Notes: generated from the sequence alone by a model not told the origin. 64,000 nt of DNA from an uncultured Myxococcales bacterium (GCA_964463485.1 CAYXDO010000015.1:34259-98258); one strand, 5' to 3'. Shown: positions 4,768-64,000, counted from the first letter of the stretch. Numbers and translations: made by a program.

Positions 4768-4832
4768 GTCACCTACTCTCGAACGGTCCTACTCGAGGAG
4801 CCGTGGACGTCCAGTCCTAACAGAAGTCGCTG

Positions 4833-7495: not shown

Positions 7496-8206
7496 GTGTT
7501 CTCTAGCAAGCGAACGTTGGTCGTAGTCCCGGCGAGGGGTGGGAGCCAAGGGATCCCGCTCAAGAACCTCAAGATCGTCGGCGGGCGGTCACTTTTGGCA
7601 CGAACCGGCGAGGTCGTTTCGCAGCTCGATTTCGTCGATCGCGCGGTCTGCTCGACGGATCATCCGCGCATCGCCGAGGAAGCTCGCGCGGTCGGTCTCG
7701 AGACTCCGTTCGTGAGGCCACAGACTCTCTCGGGGCCGCTCGTCTCAGACGCCGAAGTGCTCGAGCACGCGCTACGCGAGGTCGAGCGGCAGGAGGGCGC
7801 CGAGTACGATCTGGTGGTCATGCTGCAGCCGACGTCGCCCTTGCGTCGCGCCGAAGACGTGACGGGCACGGTGAAGATGCTGGTCGAAGGCGGCTACGAC
7901 GCGGTGTGGACGGTGAGTCTGACCGATCCAAAGCACCACCCCCTCAAGCAGCTCATCATCGAAGGTGACGCCCTCGATTATTATGATGCGGAGGGAGCCC
8001 AGATCATCGCACGCCAACAACTCACTCCTGTATACCATCGGAATGGAGTTGCCTACGCCATCTCGCGTGGCTGCTTGCTCGAACGGCGAAGCATCAAGGG
8101 GTCGAGAACCGGCGCGATGATCGTCGAAGCTCCCGCGATCAGCATCGACACCGAGAGTGACTGCGACTTTGCGGAGTGGATCCTCTCTCGGAGGAGCTCC
8201 CGTTGA
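7496..8206 (+). CDS. Acylneuraminate cytidylyltransferase family (CMP-nonulosonic acid synthetase, NeuA/KdsB-like)
   Basis: N-terminal LVVVPARGGSQGIPLKNLKIVGGRSLL matches the NeuA PARGGSKGIPxKN signature. 236 aa, typical for a stand-alone NeuA domain. Begins 4 nt after the NeuB-like stop. Confidence 0.8.
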   Translation: MFSSKRTLVVVPARGGSQGIPLKNLKIVGGRSLLARTGEVVSQLDFVDRAVCSTDHPRIAEEARAVGLETPFVRPQTLSGPLVSDAEVLEHALREVERQEGAEYDLVVMLQPTSPLRRAEDVTGTVKMLVEGGYDAVWTVSLTDPKHHPLKQLIIEGDALDYYDAEGAQIIARQQLTPVYHRNGVAYAISRGCLLERRSIKGSRTGAMIVEAPAISIDTESDCDFAEWILSRRSSR

Positions 8207-9543: not shown

Positions 9544-10405
9544 TGTCTCGGTCGTGGTTCCGACCGCGAACAGACGACCGCACGAAATTCTCCGAGCCGT
9601 CGACAGCGTGTTGTCGCAGTCTTCGGGCCGAGCGCTCTCGGGCGTCGAGCTCATCGTCGCGAACAACTCGTCCGGGCGGCTCAACCGCGCCATCGAGGTG
9701 CTCGCAGAGTCCGGCGCGCTGCAGGTCGTGGACGCCTCACGGGTGACCGGTGTCAGTCACGCTCGAAACGCGGGCGCTCGTCTGGCGCGACACGAAGTCC
9801 TCGCATTCTTGGATGACGATGACTGGTGGTCCCCGTCTTTCCTCTCAGACTTGCTGCTCGAGCTCGACGCACACTCCGCCGATTTGTGCTCCAGCGGGTT
9901 TTGGGTTTGGACGGAGAGAGGTAAGAAGCCCGGTCCGATGCTCGAATCACCCACGACGGCGGCGCGGTTCTTGAGTGAGAATCCGGGCATCACGGGCTCG
10001 AACTTCATCATTCGTCGGAGCGCCTTCGAGGCGCTCGGCGGCTTCGACGAGGCCCTGTTCGCGTCCAACGATGGGGACTTCATGATTCGCTTCCTGGAGT
10101 CCGGAGAGTACGCATGGCGAGTCGTGATGGCGAGGCTGGTGAACGTAGACCGTACGCCACACGACCAGGTCTCCGTGCCCACGCCAAGACGAGTCCAGAG
10201 CATGCGGAGATTTCAGTCCATCCACGGCGCCAAGATGGGCCCGCGGGTCCAGAGAGACTTCGAGTACCGCCTGGCCGTGTGCGAGGCCGCGAGCAACCGA
10301 TCCTATTGGGATTTGGTCGGGCTGATTCCCCGGCATCCTAGGTGGTCACGCCAGACACTCGGGTGGATCAAGAAGCTCGCGCTGGGCCGGCACTCGACGT
10401 TCTGA
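9533..10405 (+). CDS. Glycosyltransferase family 2
   Basis: MSHSVSVVVPTANRRPHEILRAVDSVLSQS...FLDDDDWW is a GT2 fold signature. Start overlaps the previous stop by 11 nt. Confidence 0.75.
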   Translation: MSHSVSVVVPTANRRPHEILRAVDSVLSQSSGRALSGVELIVANNSSGRLNRAIEVLAESGALQVVDASRVTGVSHARNAGARLARHEVLAFLDDDDWWSPSFLSDLLLELDAHSADLCSSGFWVWTERGKKPGPMLESPTTAARFLSENPGITGSNFIIRRSAFEALGGFDEALFASNDGDFMIRFLESGEYAWRVVMARLVNVDRTPHDQVSVPTPRRVQSMRRFQSIHGAKMGPRVQRDFEYRLAVCEAASNRSYWDLVGLIPRHPRWSRQTLGWIKKLALGRHSTF

Positions 10406-43845: not shown

Positions 43846-43961
43846 GACGAAAGGCGCGGAACCCTAGAAATGGCGTCGGGTTGTGTCAATCGAGAAGCCC
43901 AATCTCCCGTCGGACAAGAGGCCCAGGGCCGGAACCGCACGGGAAGTGCTATACCTCGAAT

Positions 43962-46900
43962 ATGATCGGCCGGAGAGTTTTTCACGCGGCGCCTTTGCTT
44001 CTCGCGCTCGTCTCGTGTGGTCGCGATGGGCCGGCGCTCGGCAAGTCCGTCGAACGCTCCCTGCTGATTCGTCCAGGGTCCTTCGAGCTGTATCGAGGCC
44101 AGCGCTTCGGGTTCGACGTGTTGCTCGTCGAGGGCGGGTTGGAGAAGTCGGTGCTCTCCGAGGCCGAGACCTCCCTCGAGCCCGCGAAGATCGTGGAGCT
44201 CCAAGGGCTCGGCGCGGGGATCGCGCGGGCTGCGGGCGAGGCGAAGCTGCTCGCTAAACATGGGCCGCTCTCCGCATCGGCCGACATCACGGTCCATGCG
44301 GCCGAGCTGACCGGCATCTCCGTCAAACCCGAACGCTTCACCTTGGCCACGGGTGAGTCGCGGCCGCTCGAGGTCGAGGGAACGCTGAGCGATGGGTCCC
44401 GAGTCGATCTGACTCCTGGCGCCACGGGGACGACGTACCGCAGCTCTGGGGCGCGGTTTGCGAGCGTCGATGCGAATGGCTCGGTGCTCGCGCTTGCTCC
44501 CGGCGAGGTCGAAATCACCGTGACGCACGGCAGATTCTCCGCGACCGCGAATCTCACGATCACCGGCGAGCCTCCGAAGGGCTTCGTGAGCTTGCGACTC
44601 GACCCCGACGTGTTGGCGTTGGGATTCGGCCAGAGCGCTCTCCTTAGAGCCATCGGCAAAACCGAAGACGGAACCGAGCACGACCTCGTCAGAGAGGGCT
44701 TCGAGGTGAGCTTCGGTTCCTCGGACAACAACTTACTGGTCGTGTCTCCCATGGGGTCGGTTCAAGCTCGCAACTCGGAGGGCTCCGTCACGGTCACCGC
44801 CAAACACCGCGAGCTCTCGGCGACGGCGAAGGTCGACATCAAGCGGGAGGTCGAGCGCCGACTCACTTCCATCACCATCGTGCCAGAGACCGCGACGCTC
44901 AACGTCGGCGAGACTCTTCAGCTCCAAGTGCTGGGAAATTATTCGGATGGAACTCAGGCCGATCTCACTCGCGGCTCCGGAACGACCTATCGCCCCACGC
45001 CCGCCAACGGCCCGGCGACCGTGGGCCAAACCACCGGGCTCGTGCGCGGGGCACGACCAGGCAACTCGGTCATTACGGCGACCAACTCGGGATTCACCGC
45101 GCAGACTCGCATTCGAGTGCTGGAGGCGGACGTCACACTCACCGAGCTCATCGTCGAACCCGCTCAGGTCTCCATCCCCGTCGGGGAGACTCGCGAGCTG
45201 ACCGTCACCGCCGTGTTCTCCGATGGGTCTCGCACCAACGTCACGAGCTCACCGTCCACAACGTACTCGGTGTCTCCCATCGACGTGGCCACGGTGAATG
45301 CTGGTCGAGTCACGGGCCGACGCCCCGGGCGCGCCGAAGTTAGGATCACATACGGCGGAATCACGCGCTCGGTCGAGGTCGTGGTCACCGATCAGCCGGT
45401 CACCGTCGTCGGACTGCGGTTCGTGCCGGACCCGATCCGAGTCGCCGTCGGCAGCTCCGTACCCTTCCAAGTCATCGCGCAATACTCGGACGGGTCGACG
45501 CGAGACGTAACCGGCTCGAGGGGGCTGGCGCTCCGCATTTTGGACACTTCCGTCGCGGCCCTCTCCGGTATCGGAGGGATCCAGGGACAAGCGGCCGGCG
45601 ATACTTTCATCGAAGCCAACTTCCAGAACGCGTCGGCTCGCGCACGGATCGTCGTCGAAGGGGGGCCGGTCGGATATGTCGCACTCATCCTGGTCGTACC
45701 CAATACCATCGACGTCGGATCCACGGAGGCTTGGCAGGTGGGCGGAGTGCGTTCCGACGGCCAGATCGACGATCTCACACACGACCCTAGGCTCCAAATC
45801 TCGGTGTCGAGCTCGAACGTCATCGCCGTGAGGCCGGGCGAGGTCGAGGGGCTACGCGTGGGGGTCTCGGATCTGACCGTGCGGATGTTGGGGCTGAGCG
45901 CGACGCGCAGCGTACGTGTGATCGCGACGGTCGATCCAGTGGTTCGGATCGAGTTCGTGCCTGCCTCCATCACGATGGACGTGGGCGATCAAGTCATCGT
46001 GCAGTTGTTCGCAATCTACCAGTCCGGAGCTCGGCGCGACATCACGTACGATCCCGGCGTGAACGGCAGCGCGACCGGCCCCGTCGACCTGCTCCCCGAT
46101 CCGAACGGGGTGATCGTGGTTGCGCTCGGTGCTGGGCGGGCACAAATCGACGTCACCTACCAGAACCTCTCGGCGAGCCTGCCGATCACGATTCGGGGCG
46201 CGAACCCCACCCTCACGTCGCTCGAGGTGGTCGCGCCCACTTCGATGAACGTGGGCAACGTCGTGGCGTATCAAGTCATCGCGCACTACAGCGACGGGTC
46301 GGTCGAGGACGTGACCTTCGATCCGAACGTCGTCGTGCGAGTGTCTCCGCCTGGAGTGGCCAGCCTGCTCGGCGCCGGGGCCATCCGAGGAGACTCTCCG
46401 GGGACGGCGATGGTCGAGGCCGTGCTCGGGGGCTTCCAGGCGAACGCGTTCATCCGCGTGCTACCCGCGTCATTCGTGGCGCTCTTCTGGGTACCCTCGG
46501 CGCTCACACTGCAGGTCGCAGAGTCGGCGACGGCCGAGCTATTCGGTCGCCGAGCGGACGGGAGCACCAGCCGAATTTCTCCGTCCGGCGTGGACGCGCT
46601 CTCGGCGTCTGGCCCGATCGCAGTCAGCGTGGGCCCGACGAGCTTCATCATCAGCGGCAGCGGCGTTGGGACAGGTGAGTTGCGTGCCTCGATGGATGGG
46701 CTCGAGGCGGTGCTTCCCGTCAACGTGACACCTGGCCCAGCCCAGGTCACCGGCATTCGCGGAGAACCGAACCCGATGAACCTGACGATCCTGGGAATCG
46801 GTCGAATCACCGTGATTGCGACCTACTCGGATGGGCGGGAGGGCCCTGTCACCGGCGCAACCTTCGTGAGCGCGAACGGGATGGTCGCAAACGTGGATCC

Positions 46901-48710
46901 CAGCGGCACGGTGATCGGATTCAGCCCGGGCACCACGACGATTCAAATCAGTTATTCGGGCTTCAACGCGACGGTGACGGTCAATGTCGGCGCGACGCCC
47001 TTACGACTGATCGTCACGCCAGACCCGGTCGACGTCGACGTCGGTTCCGTCGTGGCGCTGAGTGTGTCCGTCCAACTCAGTGACGGAACGACTCAGCCCG
47101 CTACGGGTGCGACCTTCAGCTCCGACGACCCGTCGGTGGCCTCAGTCGGTCCACTCGGCGGCGTTCGCGGGGTGACCGCGGGACAGACGTTCGTGACGGT
47201 CAGCGCGATGGGATTGAGCGCGCGCATCGGCGTCACCGTCCACGCGGTCCCGCCGCCGGTGCTCACGCGCCTCGACCCGGATGCGATCGCGGTGGGTTCG
47301 CCAGCGACGACCGTTCGTGCGCTCGGGAGTGATTTCCGAGCGGGCGATCGTATCATCTTCGATGGCGGCGTGCTCACGGCGACCTTCGTCAGCGCCAACG
47401 AGCTCACCTTCAGACTCACCGCTACTCAGCTCCGGACCGTCGCCAATCACCGCGTCCAGGTCGAGCGTCCCACGACCGCGCAGAGATCGGTCGTTCGAAC
47501 TCTGCGGGTCGGAGAGCCTCCCAACATCAGCGAGCTCAACCCGGCGGCGATGCGAGAGGGTACGACGGAGGATTTGGAGGCCGTCGGCAGCGGACTCACG
47601 GGGCTGACGATCACCTCCAACAGCCCGGTGATTTCGATTTGCTGTGCGGCCGAGTCAGGGACTTCGGTCCAATTCAGGGTGACCGCGCCGGCGAGCTCGG
47701 CGGGTTCGTATACGCTCACCTTCACGAACGACTTTGGCTCGACGACGGTCACGCTCACCGTCCTGGCTGGCCCAGCGGATCTCGTGGTCAGTGCGGGTCA
47801 AACGGTCCATCTGTCCGGTGCGAATACCTATCACGACGTTCGTGTCGAGGCTGGCGGGACGATCATCGGGGATGGGTTCACGCCCCTGCACCTGTTTGCG
47901 GAGGGCACGATCACGATTCGAGGGATGATCGACGTAAGCGGGTCGGACGGGCAGGACGGCTTTCGCGGACCGGCGGGCGGCGGTGACGCAGGACCCGGCG
48001 GCGGTGGCGGTGGCGGCGGTGCGGACGGCAACACCAACTCTCCTGCGGCAGGCGGGCAAGGCGCGCCGAACGGAGGCTCTGCGGCGATCGGCGCGGGAGC
48101 TGGCACGGCGGCCGGAGACGGCGGCGGCTTGGGTGCGGGCGAAGGTGCAGCCGGAGGCTGTGGACAAGGCGGTGGCGGTGGCGCCTTTGGCGGCAACGGT
48201 GGCGCGGGCGGCGGCGACGCTGGAGACGGGCGCGGAGCCCCCGGAGGCACGGCCTCCGGCGGGAGCACGTTCGCGGGTGGCACCGGCGGAGGCGGCGGAA
48301 GCACATGCAGCAATAGCTCCGGCGGAGGCGGGGGCGGAGGCGGAGGCGTGCTCGTCCTCGAGACTGCAGGCGGCCAAATCTCGGTGGTCGGCATCGTGAG
48401 GGCTAACGGCGGCAAAGGGGGCGATGGGTTTGGCAACACCGGAGGCGCAGGCGGAGGCGCGGGCGGCCGAGTTCAGCTCGCAGCCCCAGGCGGAGTCGTG
48501 AGTGTGTCGGGTACGGTCGAGGCGGTCGGCGGCGGCGGCGGCAACTCCTTCGACGGGGATGCCGGCGGCGGCGGCGGCGGCGGCCAGATCGTGATCAGCG
48601 CGGGGACTCGCAATCTCACCGGAGTCATCGACGTGGCGGGAGGCAACGGCGGGCTCGCCATTCGAAATGGAAACTCGGGGCGACCCGGAGCCTCGGGAGT
48701 CACGCCCTAA
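43962..48710 (+). CDS. Giant surface lipoprotein, about 1580 aa: about 14 tandem bacterial Ig-like (Big_2) domains, IPT-like segments and a Gly-rich low-complexity C-terminal region
   Basis: Lipoprotein signal MIGRRVFHAAPLLLALVSCG. Recurrent about 85-aa units with ...G..A..G.A.ITA/VT....... typical of Big_2. Final about 215 aa are Gly/Ala/Asp-rich. ORF-track start 43881 precedes the signal peptide. Confidence 0.75.
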   Translation: MIGRRVFHAAPLLLALVSCGRDGPALGKSVERSLLIRPGSFELYRGQRFGFDVLLVEGGLEKSVLSEAETSLEPAKIVELQGLGAGIARAAGEAKLLAKHGPLSASADITVHAAELTGISVKPERFTLATGESRPLEVEGTLSDGSRVDLTPGATGTTYRSSGARFASVDANGSVLALAPGEVEITVTHGRFSATANLTITGEPPKGFVSLRLDPDVLALGFGQSALLRAIGKTEDGTEHDLVREGFEVSFGSSDNNLLVVSPMGSVQARNSEGSVTVTAKHRELSATAKVDIKREVERRLTSITIVPETATLNVGETLQLQVLGNYSDGTQADLTRGSGTTYRPTPANGPATVGQTTGLVRGARPGNSVITATNSGFTAQTRIRVLEADVTLTELIVEPAQVSIPVGETRELTVTAVFSDGSRTNVTSSPSTTYSVSPIDVATVNAGRVTGRRPGRAEVRITYGGITRSVEVVVTDQPVTVVGLRFVPDPIRVAVGSSVPFQVIAQYSDGSTRDVTGSRGLALRILDTSVAALSGIGGIQGQAAGDTFIEANFQNASARARIVVEGGPVGYVALILVVPNTIDVGSTEAWQVGGVRSDGQIDDLTHDPRLQISVSSSNVIAVRPGEVEGLRVGVSDLTVRMLGLSATRSVRVIATVDPVVRIEFVPASITMDVGDQVIVQLFAIYQSGARRDITYDPGVNGSATGPVDLLPDPNGVIVVALGAGRAQIDVTYQNLSASLPITIRGANPTLTSLEVVAPTSMNVGNVVAYQVIAHYSDGSVEDVTFDPNVVVRVSPPGVASLLGAGAIRGDSPGTAMVEAVLGGFQANAFIRVLPASFVALFWVPSALTLQVAESATAELFGRRADGSTSRISPSGVDALSASGPIAVSVGPTSFIISGSGVGTGELRASMDGLEAVLPVNVTPGPAQVTGIRGEPNPMNLTILGIGRITVIATYSDGREGPVTGATFVSANGMVANVDPSGTVIGFSPGTTTIQISYSGFNATVTVNVGATPLRLIVTPDPVDVDVGSVVALSVSVQLSDGTTQPATGATFSSDDPSVASVGPLGGVRGVTAGQTFVTVSAMGLSARIGVTVHAVPPPVLTRLDPDAIAVGSPATTVRALGSDFRAGDRIIFDGGVLTATFVSANELTFRLTATQLRTVANHRVQVERPTTAQRSVVRTLRVGEPPNISELNPAAMREGTTEDLEAVGSGLTGLTITSNSPVISICCAAESGTSVQFRVTAPASSAGSYTLTFTNDFGSTTVTLTVLAGPADLVVSAGQTVHLSGANTYHDVRVEAGGTIIGDGFTPLHLFAEGTITIRGMIDVSGSDGQDGFRGPAGGGDAGPGGGGGGGGADGNTNSPAAGGQGAPNGGSAAIGAGAGTAAGDGGGLGAGEGAAGGCGQGGGGGAFGGNGGAGGGDAGDGRGAPGGTASGGSTFAGGTGGGGGSTCSNSSGGGGGGGGGVLVLETAGGQISVVGIVRANGGKGGDGFGNTGGAGGGAGGRVQLAAPGGVVSVSGTVEAVGGGGGNSFDGDAGGGGGGGQIVISAGTRNLTGVIDVAGGNGGLAIRNGNSGRPGASGVTP
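47990..48640 (+). repeat. Gly-rich low-complexity coding region (GGGxGxG runs) at the C-terminus of the giant lipoprotein
   Basis: Translated runs GGGDAGPGGGGGGGGADG...GGGGGGGGGVLVLE...GGGGGGQIVIS. The underlying DNA is GGC/GGN-rich. Confidence 0.8.
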
Positions 48711-48803: not shown

Positions 48804-51341
48804 TCACGGGCGGGCCCTGGCGACGGCCACGCGGCGGCCAGACATTCCGAAAGCGAGCTCTTGGTCACCGATCAGGGCCACAGCGCCAGCGAATTCAGCA
48901 TCGAGCCGCGTCCATCGGTCGAGGGCGAAAGGCCTTTCGATGAAAGTGCGGCGACCGAGCGACAAGGTCTGCGCAAAGACGGTCAAGTGCCCCAGCGGGT
49001 CAATCAGCACCGACGGAGTTCCCGTCATGAGTAGCCTGGGAGAGTCTCGCGCCGGCACATCGTACCCGGGCAACGCTCGGATTCGAAGCCCGTCGGCGCG
49101 GTCTGCGAGTCGGCGCGGTCGAGCCTCGACCAGGTTGACTCGATCGAGGATGCTGGAGCGAACCGCGAAGAGGACACCGCCCTGCTCGAGGTCTTGAATC
49201 GATTCGATGGGTCGACTCTGCCCGAGAGTGGAGTCTGCGACGACCTCGGCGGGGAGGGCAACACGCTGGACTCTGCCAGCCGCGTATCGGGCCAGCACTC
49301 CGGAGCAGCCCCCGAGCCAGGCGACACCCCCTCCCGCGGATGCGACGTGACGCCACGACCCCGGGATGGGTGCGAACGGATCCGGAAACTCGGCGGTTCG
49401 CGCGCAATCGTTCGTGCCCGGCGAGGTTTCGAGTTCGGGAGTGCTCGGATCGTCCCACGCGACCTCGACCTCGGCGGCGACGTCTCCTCGGAGCTCGTAG
49501 ACTTTCCAGCCCGCACCCACGAGGAGCCCCACTCCGTGGGCGACCTCTGCGACGTCGTCGTAGGTGATTTCGGGTAGGTCATATTTGGTCCAATGAGGCG
49601 GGTTGATTGAAACGTCGAGCCGTCCAGCGAAGCCGCCCTCGGGTGTCGTCGCTGCGATCCAGAACGTCCCATCCGCGCGCGATCGAGCGGCGCCGACGAC
49701 AAAAGCGCGAGGATCGACCGGCAGCGAGATCGGCGAGCCCAGAGCGCGGCCTTCGAGCTTCGTGACCTCCGGGGGGCTTGGCCAGAACACCCAAGCCGCG
49801 TCGCCGTCGGGTACGATCGCGGCGGCAGGGAGGGTGTGCTCGCGGCCGTAGGTAGGTTCGGGAGGGCTGCCCGAATGAGACCGCAGCCACTCGCCATCGC
49901 GGGCTCTCGCGAGCAAAGTCCCGACGGGAATCGAGTCTGGCCGAAAGAGATCAGCTGGCAGGCCCAACTCGGCAAGTAAACCGGCGCGAGCGTGGTCGTC
50001 GGCATCCAGCACGAGCGCTCGACCGTCGGCCATACTCACCCAGGTCTCGGTCTCCGTTCGATGAACGATTCCGGAGATGGCGACCGAGGAGGTCAGGATT
50101 GTCTCCCAAGGACTCGTCCCTCGGACCTGGGATCGATGAAGTCGGTAACGCCCCTCTTCGACGGTGTAGACTAGGCCTTTGCTACCGACGCGACCCAGGT
50201 GGACCCGCGACCCGAGGCGACTGACATCCCGAGTCGCCAGCTGAGGAGACAAGTCGAGCGCGAAGACGGCGCCCTGCCCGCCGAGGAGCAGCGTGGACTC
50301 GTCGAGGGCGACCACAGATTCCGCCTTGTCTGGGGCTCTCGACAGGCTGCCGCGGACGGTGCAAGTCGACAGATTGTCGCACTCATAGACGATCAATCGG
50401 TGGGGCGAGTTGATGTCTTGGTGTATGATGAGTACGGACCCAGAGGGAGCTCGACACAAAGTGTATTTCTCGATCCCCGAAAACCGTGGAATCGAGTGTT
50501 TCAGCTCGACACCTCGACTCGACATCGAGAAGACGCGCGCGAGGTCCGCTTGGTCGGTGTCGAGGCTGAGCACGAGGACGGAAGCGTCACCGAGGGCCTC
50601 CGCATCGATGATCGGCCCGGGGAAAGTCACCGGGTGCGTCGTTCGCTCCCCGGCTGAACCGATCCACAGCGCGACTCGCTCGCTGACGAACGCGGATGCG
50701 CCGCTCGGCGTCATCGCGGCGATCTCGACGGGCTCTGCGTCCAAAGGGGGATGGATGAACTCGATATCCAGCGGAGGGCTCGTCGCGGCGACTTCCGGCC
50801 AGGCCGAGCAGGTGCCCGGGCGCGTCACGACGACCGACCGTTCGAGCGCGAGCGCGGAGGGATCTGAGGAATCGAGCCTATGAGTCGGGTCGAACACGGC
50901 GGCGAACGGGGGGATCGGGCACGCGTCGCCTTCGAGCAAGAGCTGAGGAGGTTGCGTCGCGGGCACGGCGCAGAACGGACAGCTCCCAATCAGAGGGGCA
51001 TCGGTGGACTTTCGCACATCGAGCGCTCCGACTTCGGTGACACTCAGCGGCGCGCTGGTGGGGCCCACGAGGTCCGCGGCAGCGACGACCACGAGGAGCT
51101 TCCCGTAGGTTTCGTCGACCTCGACGCGACCCAGTCCGTCGCGAATGGGTACGACTTTGTCCACCTGCCCGCTGGCGTCCATGGAAACGAAAACGACCAG
51201 ATCGCCGGGCAGCGCGTCGACGGGAAACGTGAGCGCGTCGGGAGCGCAAGCGATCAGGCCGCAAGCGATCAGGCAGCAAGCGATCAGGGCGAGGCGCAGC
51301 GTCGCGCTCCCTGAAGAGGGACTCACCTTCTCAGCATGCAC
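48804..51341 (-). CDS. Large secreted (lipo)protein of about 845 aa, of unknown function. The signal peptide contains three tandem LIAC lipobox-like motifs.
   Basis: N-terminus ...SATLRLALIACCLIACGLIACAPDA. Long beta-rich body with no motif I recognise. Start placed at a GTG about 51341; ORF-track start 51419. Confidence 0.55.
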   Translation of the reverse strand: MHAEKVSPSSGSATLRLALIACCLIACGLIACAPDALTFPVDALPGDLVVFVSMDASGQVDKVVPIRDGLGRVEVDETYGKLLVVVAAADLVGPTSAPLSVTEVGALDVRKSTDAPLIGSCPFCAVPATQPPQLLLEGDACPIPPFAAVFDPTHRLDSSDPSALALERSVVVTRPGTCSAWPEVAATSPPLDIEFIHPPLDAEPVEIAAMTPSGASAFVSERVALWIGSAGERTTHPVTFPGPIIDAEALGDASVLVLSLDTDQADLARVFSMSSRGVELKHSIPRFSGIEKYTLCRAPSGSVLIIHQDINSPHRLIVYECDNLSTCTVRGSLSRAPDKAESVVALDESTLLLGGQGAVFALDLSPQLATRDVSRLGSRVHLGRVGSKGLVYTVEEGRYRLHRSQVRGTSPWETILTSSVAISGIVHRTETETWVSMADGRALVLDADDHARAGLLAELGLPADLFRPDSIPVGTLLARARDGEWLRSHSGSPPEPTYGREHTLPAAAIVPDGDAAWVFWPSPPEVTKLEGRALGSPISLPVDPRAFVVGAARSRADGTFWIAATTPEGGFAGRLDVSINPPHWTKYDLPEITYDDVAEVAHGVGLLVGAGWKVYELRGDVAAEVEVAWDDPSTPELETSPGTNDCARTAEFPDPFAPIPGSWRHVASAGGGVAWLGGCSGVLARYAAGRVQRVALPAEVVADSTLGQSRPIESIQDLEQGGVLFAVRSSILDRVNLVEARPRRLADRADGLRIRALPGYDVPARDSPRLLMTGTPSVLIDPLGHLTVFAQTLSLGRRTFIERPFALDRWTRLDAEFAGAVALIGDQELAFGMSGRRVAVARARP
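51246..51290. repeat. 15-bp x3 tandem repeat gcaagcgatcaggNc inside the signal-peptide coding region of the 48804..51341 gene
   Basis: Read directly: gcaagcgatcaggcc gcaagcgatcaggca gcaagcgatcagggc. On the minus strand it encodes LIAC-C, LIAC-G, LIAC-A. Confidence 0.85.
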
Positions 51342-51673
51342 TCGACCGTGGAGACGAGGAAGCCTTGCACATCGAAATTCCGGCGGAATGTCGTCCGGGG
51401 ACAGGTGACACGACCCCATGTCCGCTGACCACGGGCATCGAACGAGTCTCTGCGGGGCTCGGCCACAAGCCTTTCTTCGTCAGCCGAGTAGGCCGGGAGC
51501 TGGTCGAGATGCCCGCAATGGAGCTCGAGTGAAGCACCGGTTTGACACCTCGTGCGATCCTCCCCATGACTGAGGAGCCCAAACGAGGGCTGCCGAACGA
51601 ATCCGAGGAAGTCGAGAGGCCGGAGCGAGTCTTGTGAGTGAAGCCAAGCGACGCGAGGTTCGACGACAGGAAA

Positions 51674-52615
51674 TCACCAGCGGAACTGGTTGGGATCGAA
51701 CTCTCGCTCGTCGAGGAGGCGATAGCCTTCGGGATCTTGGATTTCCGCCGGGATCGACTCACCCGATCCGAGCCCCGCGGGCTCGCTGACGTCGACGACC
51801 ACGCGCGCTTGAGTTGCGGAGGGATCGGCGCTCGGCGTGCTCTCAGGGGCGTCCCACGACTTGACGAGCTGCGCGGTGAGCCAGCGATCAGCCGGGATGC
51901 CGAGTACGACGTGGAGCCGCGAAGTCTCCGAAAGCTCGACGACCAAGTCGACCGAGTCGGAGCCTCGGAGCTCGAAGGGGACCGAAGCCTGAGCTCGGAG
52001 CGCATCACGATCGCACGCGATTCGATACCACCAATCCGGTCGCGCGGGCTCGCCATCCGGGCCCGGTTCACGAACGTCCTTGGCCGGCTCACCATCCGGG
52101 CCCGGTTCGCACGGATCCTTCGCGGGCTCTCCGTCTGGGCCTGGCTCGAGGGGTGACTCCCGATGAGTGACCCCTTTTTCGTCGGTGACCGTGGGGCCGC
52201 TGACTCGGCCGCGGATCACGACGGAGGCTCCGTCCAAAGCCTCGGTTGGGCCGACTCTGCCGAACACGGCCAACCCACCTTGAACGTAGGCCTCGGGGAA
52301 CGGAAAGAGGGCCTCGCCTTCTCGAGAGCTCAGGAGGTGCGGTCCTTCGACGAGGGGGTGCCCGCCCGTGGGAATGGCTGGGTTATCGCCGAGCAAGCGC
52401 AAGACGTCGACGTTCACGGAGATCTCTTCGACGGTGACCCGGCCAGAGAGCTCGCTCGAGAGTCCACCGAGGTCGAGCGCGGCGACCAGCCCAACCCGCG
52501 CTTCACGCGGCTCGGGCAGCGAGAGCGAAGCGTCGGTGCGCTGGCCACACGCGGAGAGGGCGAGCATGGAGCTCGCGGTGAGTGTTACCCATTTTGGAGT
52601 TCTTCGGCCTTTCAT
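51674..52615 (-). CDS. Lipoprotein with three acidic Pro/Gly-rich 13-aa repeats ([13 protein letters not shown])
   Basis: Signal with lipobox [30 protein letters not shown] lies 9 nt upstream of the ATG at 52615. Start overlaps the stop of the upstream regulator gene (ATGA). Confidence 0.55.
52044..52160. repeat. 39-bp x3 imperfect tandem repeat encoding [13 protein letters not shown] / [13 protein letters not shown] / [13 protein letters not shown]
   Basis: Recurrent catccgggcccggttc(a/g)c cores read in the sequence, matching the 13-aa protein repeats. Confidence 0.7.
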
Positions 52616-55600
52616 CGCGCCGCCTCCTGGCACAACTTCTTGAGTGCCTCGTTTGCATTGATGATTTGGGACAACCTCGGCCGCTTCATGCCCAGCTTTT
52701 CGGCGGCTCGCGTGATGTTCCCTTGGCTCTCCGCGAGCGCCCGCGCGATCGCTTCTACCTGAATCCTCTTCTTCAGCTCGGACAGCGAGACGTCACCCGC
52801 GAGAATTCGCGAGAGCAGCGCGTCCTCGGGATTCTTGGCCGGTCGCTCCTCGGGCCTCGCGCGAATCACCTCGGGCCGCTCGGCGGTCACGAGGGGCTCG
52901 GTCGGATCGGGAGGAGGGGCCGCCGAGCGAGTGAGGGGTGGCGAATCAGCGAACAGCTCCTCGTACTCTGCGAAGTCGTCCGGACCGATCACCGAGCCAT
53001 CGGCGAGCAGAGCCACCGAGCGAATGACGTTCTCGAGCTCGCGGACGTTTCCGGGCCAGGAATACCTGGTCAGCATGGCCTCTGCGCCTTTGGACATGGA
53101 CTTCTGCGGCGTGCCGGTCTCGAGCGCATGGCGGCCGAGGAAGTGCTGTGCCAGCTCGATGATGTCCTCGACTCGCTCGCGGAGCGGCGGGAGCTCCACG
53201 GTGATTCCTCGGAGCCGATAGTAGAGGTCCTCGCGAAAAGTGCCTTGGCGCACGAGCTCCACCAGGTTCTTGTTGGTCGCACAGAGTACCCGGGCCTCCA
53301 GCTTGATGGGTCGGCCTCCGCCAACCCGTTCGAACTCACGCTCCTGCAATACTCTCAGCAGCGAGACTTGAGTCTTGGGAGAAATATCGCCGATCTCGTC
53401 GAGGAAGATGGTGCCTCCGGCCGCCATCTCGAATCGACCGGCCTTCTTCTGGTGGGCGCCGGTGAACGACCCGCGTTCGTGCCCGAACAGCTCGGACAAC
53501 AACAGGGTCTCAACCAAGGCCGCGCAGTTCAACTTCACGAAGGGTCCCGACGCGCGCGGAGACGATCGATGCAACGCCTCAGCCGCGAGCTCCTTGCCGG
53601 TACCCGACTCTCCGAGGATCAAGACCGTGTTGTCGCTGTGCGCCACTCGGTCGAGAATGTGAAAGACCTTGAGCAGCTTCGGGGAACGGCCGATGAGTGC
53701 GACATATCGCTCGTCCCATTCGGAGCTCCTCGTCCGTGCACCGCGCGGCTGCGGAGCGACGAGGATCGGCTCGCCGCTCTGTCGGCGCGACTCTCCCTTG
53801 ATCCGTTTCGAACCGGGCTCGTCGAGCGCGCGCATCGCCTGCTCGAGCTCCACCTGCGTGCGGGAACCTGCAAACGCAGCGCGAAGGTCCGCCGGGAGCT
53901 CCGCGGAGAGCTCCCCTCGCAGCTTCTCGGCCTGAAGCAAGTGGGCCCTGGCCGTTTGAGTGTCTCCGCGAAGTAGGAGCGCTCGCCCGAGCGTCGCCTC
54001 GACCTCTGCGCGGAGCAGCCTGTCCTCGGTCTTGTGCTCCGAGGCCGCCGTTTGCGCCGCTTCGACCGCCCTCGGATCCTTCTCCGCGATACGGATCTTG
54101 GCGGCGAGCAGGCTCACCTTGGTCGCGATGCGAGCGGTCTTGATCTTGGCCTTGGATGCCTCGAGCTCCGCCAGAATCTGGGCCGCCACTTGCGGCTCTC
54201 CGGCCCGCAGCTCGACTTCGGCCAGGTCTGCCAGAGTTTCGACCGGACGCTCGGGCCCGAGCCTTCGCTGATGAATCATGGCTTCGCGGAGCCGCTTGGC
54301 GGCGAGCTCGTACTGACCTCGCTCCGCAGCGATGCTCCCATCGAGCGCCAAGGAGATCGCGCGGAGGCGCTCCACCCCGCCGGCCTCGGCGATCCTGAGC
54401 GCCTCGGCGTTGTAGGCCTCCGCGCGATCCAGCGATCCGACAGCGAAGGAGAGATTCGCGAGGTTGTAAAGCACGCGGGCGAGCTGAGTCTTGTTGCCGA
54501 GCCTGCGGAACAGGCCGAGCGCGGAGCGATAGTGTCCGAGCGCGACGCCCAGCCGGGACTGCTGGTGAGCCAATACACCGAGGTTCAAGTGGCCGAACGC
54601 CAAGTGCGACATTTCTCCGGCCGACTTGGCCCGCTGAATACCGGCCTCGAGGCTCGCTTCGGCGAGGGACTCGCGCCCCGCGCGCATGTGCGCCAGGCCG
54701 ATGTTGACCAGCGAACGCGCCTCCGCGCGCAACAGCCCGCTCGACTCGGACAACCTCAACGTCTCGTCGAACGACAAGAGCGCGGTGTCCACGTCGTCAG
54801 CCGCCAGCGCGATCTTGCCCAGCAAATTCACCAGCTCGATTCGCACACGCACGGACCCGCATGAGTCTATGCTCTCGAGACCTGCTCGGCCGCGCTCCCG
54901 CGCTTCGTCCAATTTTCCCTTATGGTACAAGGCTTCGGCGCAGGCCACTTCGAGCTCGGGGCGCTCGGCAGCATCATCCGCCAATGCCCGACGAGCTTCC
55001 TCGATCACCGCCAGCGCCCGGTCGTACTCGCCCGACTGATTGGCAAGCTCCGCTTCGAAGAGTACGGCCGGTCCCACGCTGGACTCAGGCAGCGCAGCCT
55101 TCCACTCTTCGGCCCGCCGGAGCGCATCTCGACGCTCCCCGCGGATCGCCGCCAGGCGCGCCAGTTGCTCGAGCACCAGGACACGAGACTCGCCCGAGGC
55201 CAGTGGCAAGACCTCTTCATACGTGCGCGCCGCCGCGGCATGAGCCCCCGCCACGGCGTGGGCCTCCGCGGCCTTGATCGCCAAGCTCATCCCACGCTCG
55301 GGCTGATCGGAGCGCAAGTAGTGATGCGCGATGATCGCGGCTCCGGCCGGACGACCGGGCTCCGAGGCCAACACTTCAGCCCACCGCCGATGAAGGCTCT
55401 GCGCGAGAGCTGTGGGCATCGCGGCGATCGTCGAATCGAGGTTCACGCGTCGAGCGAACGAGAACCGAAGCTCGCCGTTCTCGATCGAACGATCGAGGAT
55501 TCGAGAGTCTCGCAATCCAGAGAGAGATTTCACGACGTCCTTTTGCGGGCGTCCGGTGACTTCGGCGACGACTTTGGCGGAGGCGGGCGCGGAGGCGAGC

Positions 55601-56457
55601 GCGAGCGCGTAAAGGAGCTCCCGCGAGAGCGGGTCGAGCCCGGCGAGCCGGCGCGCATAGAGCTCCTCGACGTTCGACGGCAGAGTCTCGAGGAGCTCGT
55701 CGATCTCGCGGGGCAACCCATTGGACGCGGCGAGCAACCGCTCGAGCACGCGAGGTGAGTCGAGGTAACGTCGCAACCCATCCAAGTCGAGACGACCGAG
55801 GAACATCACGTCGTCCGCGCGACGCTCCCTTTGCTCCTCGAGAAAGTCTCGTACCGGCGCACTCGACTCCGACTCATCTGAGAAACTCAGTACGAGCAAC
55901 CCAGGACGGGCTGCCTCGAGCGGCTCGCCCCGAAATCCCTCCGCCAAGTCCGCAGCGAGCTCGAGCGTATCAGCGCCCGCTCGCTCGAGCTCGTGTACGA
56001 TGACGAGCAGCCGCGTTCGCTCCGCGACTCCAAGCAACAGGCGTCGCACCGAGTCGAAAAACAGGAGTTTTCGTTCGAGCGACGGAGTCCCCGCGGCACT
56101 CTCCTCGGCCCCAAGCACCGGTTCGAGCCCAGAGAGCAGCGGGTCGATGAGCGCCCGCTCTCCCATGCTCTCCGCCCAAACGATCGCGGCTCTCGCAATT
56201 TCCGCGAAGGGCGCGAAGCTCGGGCCCGCTGCGTGGGGCGTACGCCCCTCGAGCACCAGGACGTGCCCGGCTTTTGCGCCCTTGACGAGACCGAAGAGCA
56301 AGCGACTCTTCCCTGCCCCGCTCGGTCCGTGCAGCACGACGGCGCTCCCGCGATCGGCGAGCAACCGCTCCTGCAACCGCACGAGCTCCGAGCCGCGAAC
56401 TTCCCACTTCGCGCTGCGCTCGGAGTCGGACGAAAACGATCGCGCAAGCTCGGTCAT
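52612..56457 (-). CDS. Sigma-54-dependent transcriptional activator (bEBP) with an N-terminal STAND-like P-loop NTPase and a long TPR array (about 1281 aa)
   Basis: N-terminal P-loop [14 protein letters not shown]. About 600 aa of TPR-like repeats. Central sigma-54 AAA+ domain: [23 protein letters not shown] (GAFTGA variant), [18 protein letters not shown]-terminal Fis-type [24 protein letters not shown]. Start placed at ATG 56457 (MTELARSF); ORF-track start 56820. Confidence 0.8.
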
Positions 56458-56667
56458 TGCTCCCACTCTAGGGGCTCGACCACGCGGGAGGCCAGTCGCC
56501 AGTTGGGGGATGGGACCGCGACGTACCCGAACAAACCCGCCGGCAAAGTGGCGAGGTTCATCGGCGAGCGTAGCGCGCACCGAACGATCTGTAGCTTCCA
56601 AGGCACGAAAGACGTAGCCACCGCAGAACGACCAGCGCAGCCGGCCCCTTTCGAACGCGTACGAACG

Positions 56668-56686
56668 GGTGGCACGGGGGCTGCAT
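56668..56686 (+). promoter_or_regulatory. Candidate sigma-54 (-24/-12) promoter TGGCACG-GGGG-CTGCA, facing the 56698 gene and divergent from the sigma-54 activator gene
   Basis: TGGCAC at about 56670-56675 and GC at about 56683-56684, with exact GG-N10-GC spacing. The predicted TSS falls at or just before the ATG at 56698. Confidence 0.5.
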
Positions 56687-56697
56687 TTTCGGCTTGC

Positions 56698-57957
56698 ATG
56701 GTTGCCGTCGCGATTCAGAATCCCTTCTCGCTCCCCGCCGCTCAGCTTTCCGTGGTTGGCGAACCGACTCATCTCGATGCGGCCGAGCTTGCTGGCGCCT
56801 TCGAGGAGCTCGGACTTCAAGGTGGGGCCTCGAAGTCCGCCATCCGGCAGTTCCAGGCCCGATTCAACGCGCTCAACCCGAGCACGCCGATCAAGGTCGA
56901 TGGGATCGTCGGTCCCGAGACGCTCGGAGCCCTTCGTCAGGTGTCGAACGGCGGCGCCGACTGGACCGCGCCCTCCGCATCGTTCAACCCACAGGCCGCC
57001 TATCGCTCTGCTTCACCGGAAATGAGCGCGGATGCGCCGCGCGTCGACGCGCGCTGGCTCAATACGTTCGGCGACGCCGCGGCTCGGGAGAGCCTTCTGA
57101 GAGCGACCAACCGACAGACGGACCCACAGTCGGACGCTGAAGGCGCTTCCGTGGCGTCCGTGGCTGGCAGCCTGTCGGGCCTCGCCGCAGGCGCAGCCGT
57201 CGCCGCGCGGGCAAAGTCTCCGGTCAAACTCACTTCGATCCAAGGCGGCGCCCTGGTCGACGACGTCGCGGGCTCGATGGCCAAGAAGGCCACGCTCACG
57301 AGCCGGCCCTACACCGCGAGCTTCAACGGCGCCGAGCTCCGCGTGAACCCAGGTGAGTCGGCGAAGGTCGCCGTCGAACGTTGGGCAGCGGCCCCCCGAA
57401 CCCTGACTCAGTTCCCCACCAACACCAGCATGCTCCGCGGAGTCATGGGCGGGGACACGCTCGAGTCGGTCGCCAAGCGCATGTCCGATGCCGCCGCGAA
57501 CAGCGGCAAGCTCATCGGTCATGAGTTCAACGGCGTCAAGCTGCTCGCGCGGCCGGGTGACTCACAGGCCCAAATCCTGAAGTCGTTCACCGCCGGTCAG
57601 GCCGCCAAGAAGGCCACGAGCCAGGCCGCGGCGGTCGCAGCCAAGGCCGGAATCGCCTCGAAGATCGCCCCTCGCCTCGGCGGCGCGGTCACCGCAGCCT
57701 TCGCCGTCGCGGACATCGCCTCCGGATTCCACGCCGACAAGGTTCGCAACGACGGCTCGTACACCGAGACGACCAAGGCGAGCGGACGAGCGGCGGGCGG
57801 CGTGGCTGGCGCGTTGGCCGGCGCGAAGGTCGGAGCGGCCGTCGGCACGATCTTCTTCCCCGGCGTTGGGACCGCGGTCGGCGCGGCCATCGGCGGCGTC
57901 GCCTTTGGCGTCGCCGGATCGATCTTCGGTGAGAAGATCGCCGACGCCACCAACTGA
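56698..57957 (+). CDS. Putative peptidoglycan-binding (PGB_1-like) protein with an Ala/Gly-rich region and a C-terminal glycine-zipper membrane segment
   Basis: [20 protein letters not shown]...[17 protein letters not shown] resembles the PG_binding_1 helix-repeat. C-terminal [33 protein letters not shown] is a GxxxG zipper. The first 235 codons of ORF 55993..57957 overlap the activator gene and were excluded. Confidence 0.5.
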
Positions 57958-62115: not shown

Positions 62116-63129
62116 TCAAACCAGCCCGCGCGTGGAGAGCTCGTCCTTGAGCCACGCGTAATAGATCGGGGCTGCGACGAGCCCGGCCACGCCGAACGCG
62201 CTCTCCATGATCAGCATCGCCGTGAGGAGCTCCCAGGCCGACGCGCGGATCGTGGACCCTACGATTCGTGCGTTCAGGAAGTACTCGAGCTTGTGAATGA
62301 CGACGAGAAACACGAGCGAACCCACGGCAACGACCGGCGACACGGCCAGACTCACGACGACGATCGCGGTGTTCGAGACGAGATTTCCGATCACCGGCAT
62401 GAGCCCAGCGATGAACGTGACCAGCACGAGCGTCTTCGAGACGGGTAGGTGCGCGTTCAGGATGGGAAGCAAGACGAGCAGATACAGCCCCGTGAACAGC
62501 GTGTTGATCGCGGAGATTCGAACCTGAGCGAACACGATCCTCCGAAACGCTTCGCTCAGCTTGTGTACGCGGTCGGCGAGGGCTCGCGCCAGCGGGGCGG
62601 CCGCGTGGTGCTCGGTCACCTCACGGAGCGAGACCATGCCTCCGATCACCATACCGATGAGTATGTGAGCGAGGGTGTGGCCGGTCTTCTTTCCGACGAG
62701 CTGGATTTCGGAGGCGTGCTCGCGTAGCCACCGCGTCGCATCTTCTTGGACCGCGGCGGCGCTGCTCGGGATCCAGTTGGCCGCCCACTCGGGCAAGGAG
62801 GAGCGTGAGCCTTCGATGATCTCGGCCATCTTGGCCAGGAGCGCGGGGATGCTGGCGTCCTCGCTCTTGACGAGCCCGAGAGTCCAGACGACCGCGACGG
62901 TCACCATGGCGACCACGACGCCCACCAAAACCCCGACCGCCAACCCCTTCGACCCTTTGGTGGACAGGCGTCGCGCGAAGACGGGAGCGATCGAGGTGAC
63001 GAGCTCGTGCACGAGAAGGCCCGCCACGAGGGCGGGCAGGAGATGCAAACCCAGCACACCGAGGGCGCCGATGACCGACACGCCGTAGGCCGCGTACTCG
63101 GTCCGGGTCGGCTGAGTTGCTTCGGTCAT
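62116..63129 (-). CDS. AI-2E family transporter (PerM/YhhT, UPF0118)
   Basis: 8-TM protein with the conserved C-terminal core ...FIAGLMPVIGNLVSNTAIVVVSLAVSP...LVFLVVIHKLEYFLNARIVG. ATG at 63129 overlaps the stop of the upstream POT gene. The about 210-aa Arg-rich extension to 63756 in the ORF track is unlikely. Confidence 0.7.
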   Translation of the reverse strand: MTEATQPTRTEYAAYGVSVIGALGVLGLHLLPALVAGLLVHELVTSIAPVFARRLSTKGSKGLAVGVLVGVVVAMVTVAVVWTLGLVKSEDASIPALLAKMAEIIEGSRSSLPEWAANWIPSSAAAVQEDATRWLREHASEIQLVGKKTGHTLAHILIGMVIGGMVSLREVTEHHAAAPLARALADRVHKLSEAFRRIVFAQVRISAINTLFTGLYLLVLLPILNAHLPVSKTLVLVTFIAGLMPVIGNLVSNTAIVVVSLAVSPVVAVGSLVFLVVIHKLEYFLNARIVGSTIRASAWELLTAMLIMESAFGVAGLVAAPIYYAWLKDELSTRGLV

Positions 63130-64000
63130 TACTCGTGTTCTTCTCCGGTCATGGGAAGCTCGGGATGAATCCACTTTTTGAGCAGCGGGGTCAGCGCGAA
63201 GAGCAATACGGCCGCGATCCCGGAGGCGATGGCGATGCGGCCGAACACGTCGGCATAGACGTGCAGGGTCTCGATCGGCGGGGGAATGATCTTTTCCTCG
63301 CCTGCGGTGTGGCTCACGCCGGTCAAGGTCGCAATCAGCCCCGCGAGGTACTCGGAGAATGCAGTGGCCAGAAACCAGCCGCCCATCATCGTCGACACCA
63401 TGTGGGCCGGCGACAGCTTGGTGACCATCGAGAGACCCACCGGGCTCAAGCAAAGCTCTCCGGTGGTGTGCAGCAGATACGCGAGCACGAGCCACGAAGC
63501 TCCGATCATGCCGCGAGGCGTGGCGCCCTGGGCACTCCACCAGAGCACCGCGAACCCAAGCGAGAGTTGCACGAGCCCCAGCGCGAACTTGATGGGTGTG
63601 GAAGGCTCCATGCCCAGCCGGCCCAATAAGCCCCAGAGCATCGTGAAGACGAGGCCGAAGAGGAGCACGAAGGCTGGGTTCGCGGCCTGAAACACACTGG
63701 CGGGGACTTCGTTGCCTCCGATCCCCATCCCCACGTGAGAGGTCTCGACCGGCCAACTCACCGTCGCGGTGCGCGAGGCTCTCTGGGCCTCCTGCTTGAG
63801 CGCGTCGAGGCGATCGATGGTGAAGACTTTCCCATTCAAGACATAACCAAGCTGCTCTTGGTTCACCTCGATCGTGAGGGACTGGCCGACGTCCGCCTGA
63901 GTCACCACTTTGGACTCACGCACGCGATCCACGTTGCGGTCCGCGAAGTTGTTCATCGAGCTCCCGGCCTGCTCGAAGAACGCCCAGAACAGCATCGAAA
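63129..64000 (-). CDS. Proton-dependent oligopeptide transporter (POT/PTR2 family, MFS), 3' portion only. The gene continues beyond the window end.
   Basis: FWAFFEQAGSS matches the POT FWxxFxQ signature. Multiple TM helices. The frame remains open to position 64000. Confidence 0.7.
   Translation of the reverse strand, partial: SMLFWAFFEQAGSSMNNFADRNVDRVRESKVVTQADVGQSLTIEVNQEQLGYVLNGKVFTIDRLDALKQEAQRASRTATVSWPVETSHVGMGIGGNEVPASVFQAANPAFVLLFGLVFTMLWGLLGRLGMEPSTPIKFALGLVQLSLGFAVLWWSAQGATPRGMIGASWLVLAYLLHTTGELCLSPVGLSMVTKLSPAHMVSTMMGGWFLATAFSEYLAGLIATLTGVSHTAGEEKIIPPPIETLHVYADVFGRIAIASGIAAVLLFALTPLLKKWIHPELPMTGEEHE

Follow-up and report, generated by a model that had tools for sequence, protein, structure and literature searches.

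Bacterial enhancer-binding proteins (bEBPs) and STAND proteins are both well-studied signal-driven oligomerizing machines and, to our knowledge, no characterized protein joins the two. Canonical bEBPs, such as NtrC, NifA, PspF, NorR, XylR/DmpR, and LevR, combine an AAA+ core, a lid, and an HTH_8 domain with a receiver, GAF, PAS, V4R, or PRD input. STAND regulators of the MalT/LAL type carry AAA_16, TPR_MalT, and a LuxR/GerE helix-turn-helix (HTH), and act on the sigma-70 holoenzyme. AfsR, a large SARP with the order SARP-NOD-arm-TPR (NOD, nucleotide-binding oligomerization domain; TPR, tetratricopeptide repeat), likewise joins a STAND-TPR module to a transcription-activation effector. Here, we analyzed a stretch of 64,000 nucleotides from an uncultured Myxococcales bacterium (GCA_964463485.1 CAYXDO010000015.1:34259-98258; hereafter the window), in which a gene on the minus strand encodes a protein of 1281 amino acids (aa) that begins with a STAND/TPR module and ends with a complete bEBP.

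The predicted protein shares the AAA+ core, lid, and HTH_8 with the canonical bEBPs, and it also shares the GSFTGA variant of the sigma-54 contact loop with LevR. However, its input is a STAND/TPR region of roughly 900 aa, and each chain contains two P-loop modules. The STAND sensor thus replaces the receiver, GAF, or PAS domain that is usual for bEBPs. In contrast to MalT/LAL regulators, the effector here is a C-terminal sigma-54 AAA+ motor with a Fis-type HTH. The effector of AfsR is N-terminal and acts by sigma adaptation at a sigma-70-type promoter, whereas that of the present protein is C-terminal and is itself a second oligomerizing ATPase. The best structural match to the whole N-terminal module was PH0952 of Pyrococcus horikoshii (PDB 6mfv; Foldseek E 5e-13 over 681 columns), which has the same order of nucleotide-binding domain (NBD), helical domain, winged-helix domain, arm, and TPR. 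Nevertheless, PH0952 is archaeal, carries an ArsR-type DNA-binding effector at its N-terminus, and shows only 14% sequence identity. No description of a STAND/TPR input on a bEBP was found in our literature searches, which covered few subscription papers, so an earlier mention may exist. A 2011 census of enhancer-binding protein architectures lists only generic "other N-terminal signal recognition domains" (PMC3162934).

Integrity of the gene and domain organization

The gene under study is as follows.

52612..56457, minus strand: whole gene for the STAND/TPR-bEBP fusion, 1281 aa (open frame and start codon; identical NCBI protein)

The minus-strand frame from 52612 to 56820 comprises 1402 codons without a single stop. 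The start codon, ATG at 56457, is preceded by a Shine-Dalgarno-like GGGAG box 5 nt upstream, and two independent gene calls (NCBI GCA_016208175.1 JACQYO010000084.1, a contig of 282.7 kb, and a Logan assembly) agree on this start and on a product of 1281 aa. GC contents at the three codon positions were 0.71/0.48/0.79 in a genome of 66% GC, a coding signature indicating that the gene is real. The identical protein is deposited in NCBI as [quoted passage not shown] (MAG, metagenome-assembled genome). Counting this entry, there are twelve full-length homologs; the eleven others have 1277-1338 aa and align over 96-100% of the length with 36-71% identity.

Pfam searches gave matches that all exceeded the curated cutoffs: AAA_16 at aa 23-173 (56.2 bits, cutoff 32.6), TPR_MalT (54.2 bits, cutoff 45) and TPR_12 both around aa 600-780, Sigma54_activat at aa 921-1087 (E 9.5e-68), AAA_lid_14 at aa 1093-1165 (E 9.1e-23), and HTH_8 at aa 1233-1260 (25 bits, cutoff 22). 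The original prediction, made from the DNA alone, was of one polypeptide with a STAND-like NTPase and TPR array, a bEBP module, and a Fis-type HTH, and it proposed a search for AAA_16, TPR_12, Sigma54_activat, and HTH_8. Every one of these domains was recovered, in one open frame and with full-length homologs, and the two strings that it had quoted are located at aa 41-54 (14 residues around the P-loop) and aa 996-1001 (GSFTGA). The possibility that the P-loop region belongs to a separate upstream gene, joined through a missed stop or a frameshift, is ruled out by the absence of any stop and by homologs of 1277-1338 aa that cover 96-100% of the protein.

The N-terminal STAND/TPR module

The N-terminal module and the linker that follows it are laid out as listed.

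55798..56400, minus strand: nucleotide-binding domain of the NOD, aa 20-220, Pfam AAA_16 (Pfam; AlphaFold; phmmer)
56305..56328, minus strand: Walker A/P-loop GPSGAGKS, aa 44-51 (translation; conservation)
55990..56010, minus strand: Walker B strand LLVIVHE, aa 150-156, with a non-canonical His-Glu (modelled strand aa 150-155; family counts)
55879..55899, minus strand: sensor-1 strand LLVLSFS, aa 187-193, with Ser193 for Arg (family column counts)
55588..55785, minus strand: helical domain, aa 225-290, with the GxP motif S245-N-G247-L-P249 (model; conservation)
55456..55578, minus strand: winged-helix domain closing the NOD, aa 294-334
53821..55449, minus strand: arm and TPR-like solenoid, presumed sensor, aa 337-879
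53713..53820, minus strand: disordered, weakly conserved linker, aa 880-915 (pLDDT; identity)

An AlphaFold2 model of aa 1-906, built from 15 sequences, reached a mean pLDDT of 83. As modelled, the NBD is an alpha/beta domain with strands at 38-44, 67-72, 150-155, 186-193, and 217-219 alternating with helices. The winged helix spans 294-334, with a hairpin at 321-334, and about 24 helices make up a solenoid that extends to residue 879. The tail at 882-906 is disordered, with pLDDT below 50 from aa 882. The protein therefore shows the tripartite NOD of STAND proteins (an AAA+-type NBD, a helical domain, and a winged helix), followed by an arm and repeat sensor, with the effector domain at one end. 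Helical repeats had been predicted to span about 600 aa of TPR; they are present, and in the model the arm and TPR together account for about 540 aa (aa 337-879).

The NOD-arm-TPR order is characteristic of STANDs (PMC6468293). In phmmer searches, aa 30-259 matched the LAL/MalT-like proteins P0102 and P0105 (AAA_16 + GerE) and the AfsR-like protein P0086 (BTAD + AAA_16 + TPR). Thus, by domain order, membership in the Pfam families AAA_16 and TPR_MalT, and homology, the N-terminal module is assigned as a STAND of the MalT/AfsR type. A sequence search with the N-terminal 906 aa against PDB chains returned weak TPR matches only (best E 0.004) and was uninformative for the NOD. Structurally, the TPR region was closest to TPRs that bind proteins or peptides, such as those of LGN and Rap/NprR. 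Mean identity among the close homologs was 58% for the helical domain, the best value of the N-terminal domains, 51% for the middle TPR block, and 43% for the NBD. The linker, of variable length, showed 18%. The linkers of NtrC1/DctD-type bEBPs are structured coiled coils, unlike the disordered linker here. Such flexibility fits intramolecular masking or tethered proximity, rather than rigid transmission of a signal.

As a separate matter, a defense STAND (Avs and others) was considered and rejected, since the PADLOC matches were those of the bEBP core to RtcR-type models only and the N-terminal module had none.

The two ATPase sites

We next compared the catalytic motifs of the two P-loop modules among the close homologs and in a family of 79 collinear proteins described below. 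In the NOD, G44, G47, G49, and K50 of the P-loop are invariant in the 12 close homologs. Across the family, the Walker A Lys occurs in 60/79 members and is absent from 19/79, and the following Ser/Thr occurs in 44/79. The GxP motif is firmer, with G247 in 79/79 and P249 in 70/79, and no feature of the N-terminal module is better conserved than [ST]xGxP. The conservation of the P-loop and of the GxP motif suggests that the NOD pocket has retained nucleotide binding.

The catalytic residues showed a different pattern. LAL and AfsR-like relatives have hhhhEDLHWAD at Walker B and an Arg at sensor 1, which senses the gamma-phosphate. In the present protein Walker B reads VIVHE, that is, His-Glu in place of the Glu-Asp of MalT/LAL regulators and one acidic residue instead of two, and the sensor-1 Arg is replaced by Ser193. 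In the family alignment, the first Walker B position is H in 45, R in 15, and D in 8 members, with an acidic residue in 10/79, while the second is D in 56. Column 193 is R in 44/79 and S in 9/79. The fully canonical set of Lys, Ser/Thr, and both acidic residues was found in only 5/79 members. Since Walker B lacks its first acidic residue and sensor 1 its Arg, the NOD is probably a latch with little or no turnover, whose catalysis is weak or lost, and across the family the N-terminal module may well work without needing a hydrolysis cycle. With these two catalytic motifs degenerate, "STAND-derived, probably hydrolysis-deficient" appears the accurate label for the module. The proposal that ATP-gated oligomerization takes place upstream of the AAA+ motor is accordingly weakened: the P-loop and GxP motif are kept, but VIVHE, Ser193, and the loss of Lys in part of the family speak against it.

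The C-terminal bEBP contains the following elements.

53197..53697, minus strand: bEBP AAA+ core, Sigma54_activat, aa 921-1087, with Walker A GESGTGKE (Pfam; NCBIfam; invariant motifs)
53455..53472, minus strand: sigma-54 contact loop GSFTGA, aa 996-1001 (translation)
52963..53181, minus strand: AAA+ lid domain, aa 1093-1165 (Pfam AAA_lid_14)
52678..52761, minus strand: Fis-type HTH, HTH_8, aa 1233-1260 (Pfam; segment nearly invariant in homologs)

Here the catalytic motifs are intact. Walker A GESGTGKE (aa 949-956) was found in 71/79 members and Walker B FLDEIG, present as IFLDEIG in this protein, in 73/79. FREDLYYRL and VRELEN, which represent the arginine-finger and sensor II regions, are invariant among close homologs and are accompanied by AAA_lid_14; ELFGHERG, which flanks the contact loop, is also invariant. 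Mean identity of the AAA+ core among close homologs was 80%. The loop itself is GSFTGA in 19/79 members, including all ten nearest homologs, and GAFTGA in 58/79. Ala-to-Ser at the second loop position is a natural variant of a validated activator, LevR (PMC3162934). A non-functional loop, which had been named as a weak point of the original prediction, is therefore not borne out by the alignments: the LevR variant is fixed in the ten nearest homologs and sits in an invariant flank. On the sequence criteria applied here, the protein is a bona fide bEBP, and its bEBP half looks fully functional. NCBIfam models matched only the C-terminal third, with those of NifA, NtrC, and PspF at E values of 1e-85 to 1e-108. 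All scored below their equivalog cutoffs, indicating that the protein is a bEBP but no ortholog of any named one. PexR, a bEBP of Myxococcus, was tried as a relative and rejected, as it is GAF-regulated.

Distribution of the fusion

An exhaustive HMMER search of 1.84 billion cluster representatives, with only the N-terminal 906 aa as the query, returned 69 proteins at E <= 1e-30. The top 150 HMMER matches and the matches of the homology search were then rescanned with the NTPase and bEBP segments of the query. As a result, at least 79 collinear proteins of 1150-1450 aa, the query entry counted, were found with the NTPase at the N-terminus and a bEBP core starting near aa 830-990. A scan of species-representative genomes, which used narrow peptide patterns, gave only 3 loci, one of them a duplicate. 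Nearly all named family members come from MAGs labelled Deltaproteobacteria, Myxococcota, or Sandaracinaceae, and a few lie on contigs of 7-8 Mb. Judged by these alignments, the fusion is real and conserved and not a one-off, recurring in many environmental Myxococcota-type genomes.

Two other arrangements of the same building blocks exist. Proteins of the reverse order, with bEBP-HTH_8 followed by AAA_16-TPR, include P0035, P0042, P0060, and P0064. Giants of 1400-2200 aa from Sorangium, Polyangiaceae, and Planctomycetota have the order Pkinase-AAA_16-TPR-(GAF)-Sigma54_activat-HTH_8 (P0015-P0034, P0066, P0068, P0074) and thus differ by an extra Ser/Thr kinase at the N-terminus and often a GAF domain. 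BLAST similarity of both groups to the query was confined to the bEBP core, with 16-33% coverage, which suggests that the kinase-containing and reverse-order fusions arose in separate events. The description of a STAND/TPR front end on a sigma-54 activator as rare does not hold, given at least 79 proteins that share this arrangement and the two other arrangements.

At one Sandaracinaceae locus (L008, protein P0013), a gene for an FHA-domain bEBP at 4446-5858 lies directly upstream of the STAND-TPR-bEBP gene; these two tandem sigma-54 activators are flanked by two histidine kinase genes.

The family offers a natural system for studying the control of a second ATPase ring by a STAND module, and for asking whether nucleotide binding by a STAND can act as a static latch. 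It also extends the bEBP catalogue by an input class, and it marks an uncharacterized envelope-related operon of regulator and repeat lipoprotein, described next, in uncultured Myxococcota-like bacteria. We consider the impact to be moderate, as the architecture is already in databases under generic names and current models are not contradicted.

A coupled lipoprotein gene

The gene that follows the bEBP gene encodes a lipoprotein.

51674..52615, minus strand: downstream lipoprotein gene, 313 aa, three PGPDGEPA repeats (ATGA overlap with the bEBP stop; lipobox LSAC)

We examined the same position in the window, L001, L002, L003, L006, L007, L008, L011, L012, and two JGI loci. At every one of these loci a lipoprotein gene follows the bEBP gene, either overlapping it by 4 bp or separated from it by a few bases, and we regard the lipoprotein gene as translationally coupled to the regulator and co-expressed with it. 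Homologous partners with the 4-bp overlap were found at five loci.

L001 13846-14787: lipoprotein partner
L002 11861-12946: lipoprotein partner
L003 11891-12922: lipoprotein partner
L006 ~9810-: lipoprotein partner
L011 6882-7988: lipoprotein partner

L012 also has a coupled partner of the same lipoprotein family with diverged repeats. The lipoprotein family is small, with only 14 clusters in 5.8 billion proteins and no Pfam match. An invariant PDGEP(A/S/N) core in 1-5 copies is present in 12 of the 14 clusters, while the remaining protein diverges to ~37% identity. Distant partners carry other acidic Pro-rich repeats, namely PDPDVDPS in three copies (L012) and PADEPAPI in three copies (L007). 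Two of the lipoprotein clusters lie on contigs equal in size to the contigs of two regulators (P0259/P0008 and P0269/P0004).

Candidate sigma-54 promoters and intergenic sequences

The 240-bp intergenic region adjoining the start of the bEBP gene was scanned together with the rest of the window for sigma-54-type promoters.

56670..56685, plus strand: sigma-54-type -24/-12 match TGGCAC-GGGGG-CTGCA, candidate target promoter (consensus scan)
56698..57957, plus strand: divergent candidate regulated gene, 419 aa (NCBI and Logan annotations)

Within the 64-kb window, only the match at 56670-56685 agrees with the consensus at 10 or more of its 11 bases and also has both the GG and the GC doublets. 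It is oriented away from the bEBP gene, and its end lies 13 nt short of the divergent ATG. Sites with at most one mismatch were not enriched in the window overall (5 found, 2.35 expected); the chance of such a site in this 240-bp interval is ~0.01 by our estimate. The divergent gene is annotated as encoding a peptidoglycan-binding protein; its N-terminus matches PG_binding_1 below threshold (21.1 bits, cutoff 23) and it has a Gly/Ala-rich hydrophobic C-terminal segment. No homolog besides itself was found in 5.8 billion proteins, and conservation of this candidate target gene is unusable as evidence because the gene is an orphan. The likeliest target of the regulator in this genome is the candidate divergent promoter at 56670-56685, which would drive the 419-aa peptidoglycan-binding-like envelope protein.

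A search for sigma-54 promoters that would drive the window's own bEBP gene found none upstream of it. In a sister clade with the synteny def-fmt-bEBP-lipoprotein, however, TGGC(A/C)C-N5-TTG(T/A)A occurs 31-50 nt before the bEBP start in all five loci for which DNA was available.

L002 ~7964: -24/-12-like element
L003 ~7953 (=L004 5929): -24/-12-like element
L006 ~5909: -24/-12-like element
L011 ~2967: -24/-12-like element
L012 ~2951: -24/-12-like element

This element has the -24 consensus and the right spacing, but its -12 part is TTGT or TTGA as opposed to TTGC, and it is absent from the window and from the 71%-identical ortholog at L001. The element suggests sigma-54-dependent autoregulation of the regulator-lipoprotein operon in the sister clade.

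Several further sequences were observed in these upstream regions. The intergenic stretch 56528-56669 (plus strand) contains four copies of CGAAC and one of AGAAC, all oriented alike, a direct repeat of 19 nt occupies 56569-56587 and 56613-56631, and a palindrome at 56646-56669 abuts the -24 element. CGAACG occurred three times against 0.6 expected upstream in the window, and likewise at L006, with no enrichment at other loci; this signal is weak, and CGAACG as an enhancer is a lead only. A non-coding block, CATCCCCCnnCTGGCGACTGG, is common to the window (56487-56520, minus strand) and L001 (~9925-9960), where it lies 30-75 nt before the bEBP start codon; this block could be a promoter or an operator. 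A dyad, CGTTAGTnnACTAACG, is common to L002 (~7830-7850) and L011 (~2835-2855), ~115 bp upstream of the -24/-12-like element, and GGTTGACC boxes occur in L002, L003, and L011. Both the dyad and the boxes could be enhancer sites recognized by the nearly invariant HTH_8.

Possible mechanisms of regulation

We favor, with moderate confidence, autoinhibition that is relieved by ligand binding to the TPR sensor. The regulator would be a cytoplasmic sigma-54 enhancer-binding protein, and in the resting state a closed, nucleotide-bound NOD-TPR module would keep the AAA+ core off, either by masking it or by blocking hexamer formation. Binding of a ligand in the TPR groove would open the module. Given the flexibility of the 35-residue linker, the AAA+ domains could then come together on enhancer DNA by way of HTH_8. 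Subsequently, the GSFTGA loop would contact sigma-54, and ATP hydrolysis by the core would open the -24/-12 promoter. The NOD would thus act as a conformational latch that binds nucleotide, rather than as an ATPase that cycles. This reading is favored because two precedents for negative control exist. In AfsR, inhibition of the SARP effector comes from the NOD and TPR domains and is lifted by ATP binding, with the oligomeric state unchanged (PMC10936776). Similarly, the GAF domain of NorR represses by targeting the sigma-54 interaction surface (PMC2941729).

A caveat to the candidate promoter is its distance of only 13 nt from the divergent ATG, which implies that the transcript has almost no leader or that the start codon is wrongly placed. 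The main alternatives to autoinhibition are the switch that the original prediction proposed and control by a partner in trans. MalT-type STANDs multimerize on ATP binding and not on hydrolysis (PMC6468293), so a weak hydrolase is also compatible with a canonical STAND switch. In such a switch, a ligand would trigger ADP-to-ATP exchange and the NOD would multimerize and nucleate the bEBP hexamer by raising its local concentration, as a form of positive control. The full NOD-arm-TPR layout with its intact P-loop and GxP would suit it, and the flexible linker tolerates a mismatch in stoichiometry between the NOD and AAA+ rings. We nevertheless hold this switch to be unlikely. The gamma-phosphate-sensing Arg of sensor 1 is lost (S193), and the oligomeric state of AfsR did not respond to ATP (PMC10936776). 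In addition, the 19/79 family members without the Walker A Lys still keep the fusion and an intact bEBP core, indicating that nucleotide-state sensing is not essential across the family.

These relaxed catalytic residues, with the canonical set of Lys, Ser/Thr, and both acidic residues in only 5/79 members, would also agree with a pseudo-NTPase scaffold, in which the TPR solenoid docks a partner that controls the bEBP in trans, as PspA does for PspF or NifL for NifA. The structural nearness of the TPRs to the protein and peptide binders LGN and Rap/NprR and the better conservation of the middle TPR block than of the NBD (51% against 43%) point the same way. A scaffold of this kind is doubtful, however, as an invariant P-loop throughout the close clade and a GxP Gly in 79/79 members argue that the nucleotide pocket is retained. 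Furthermore, the loci hold no conserved cytoplasmic partner gene, the sole conserved neighbor being the exported lipoprotein.

That lipoprotein could in turn be seen as the source of a signal: peptides of the PDGEPA type (elsewhere PDPDVDPS or PADEPAPI) would be released from it, re-imported, and bound by the TPRs, as in rap-phr or nprR-nprX. If true, RRNPP peptide quorum sensing would have a Gram-negative analogue that is wired to sigma-54. We consider this idea very improbable. The product is a 313-aa lipoprotein and not the short adjacent pro-peptide typical of RRNPP systems, and processing sites, an exporter, and an importer are not conserved in the loci. Acidic Pro-rich repeats are also common as flexible spacers of envelope proteins, and the likeness to RRNPP receptors is a generic TPR similarity, with LGN and MalT scoring higher. 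Finally, a sigma-70-type regulator with a bEBP-like core, as in TyrR, DhaR, and HupR, is hardly credible, since the contact loop GSFTGA is intact, whereas sigma-70-dependent relatives have deletions or disruptive changes there (PMC3162934), a sigma-54 promoter match adjoins the gene, and at sister loci the orthologs are preceded by -24/-12-like elements.

Neighboring genes

Other genes near the regulator were also inspected. A Big_2 repeat protein of roughly 1600 aa is encoded at 43881-48710 (plus strand), an 871-aa protein without a Pfam match at 48804-51419 (minus strand), and a POT/PTR2-type peptide transporter at 63129-64000 (minus strand), where the gene runs off the end of the window. 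These three neighbors have an envelope or exported flavor, and none is conserved beside the orthologs.

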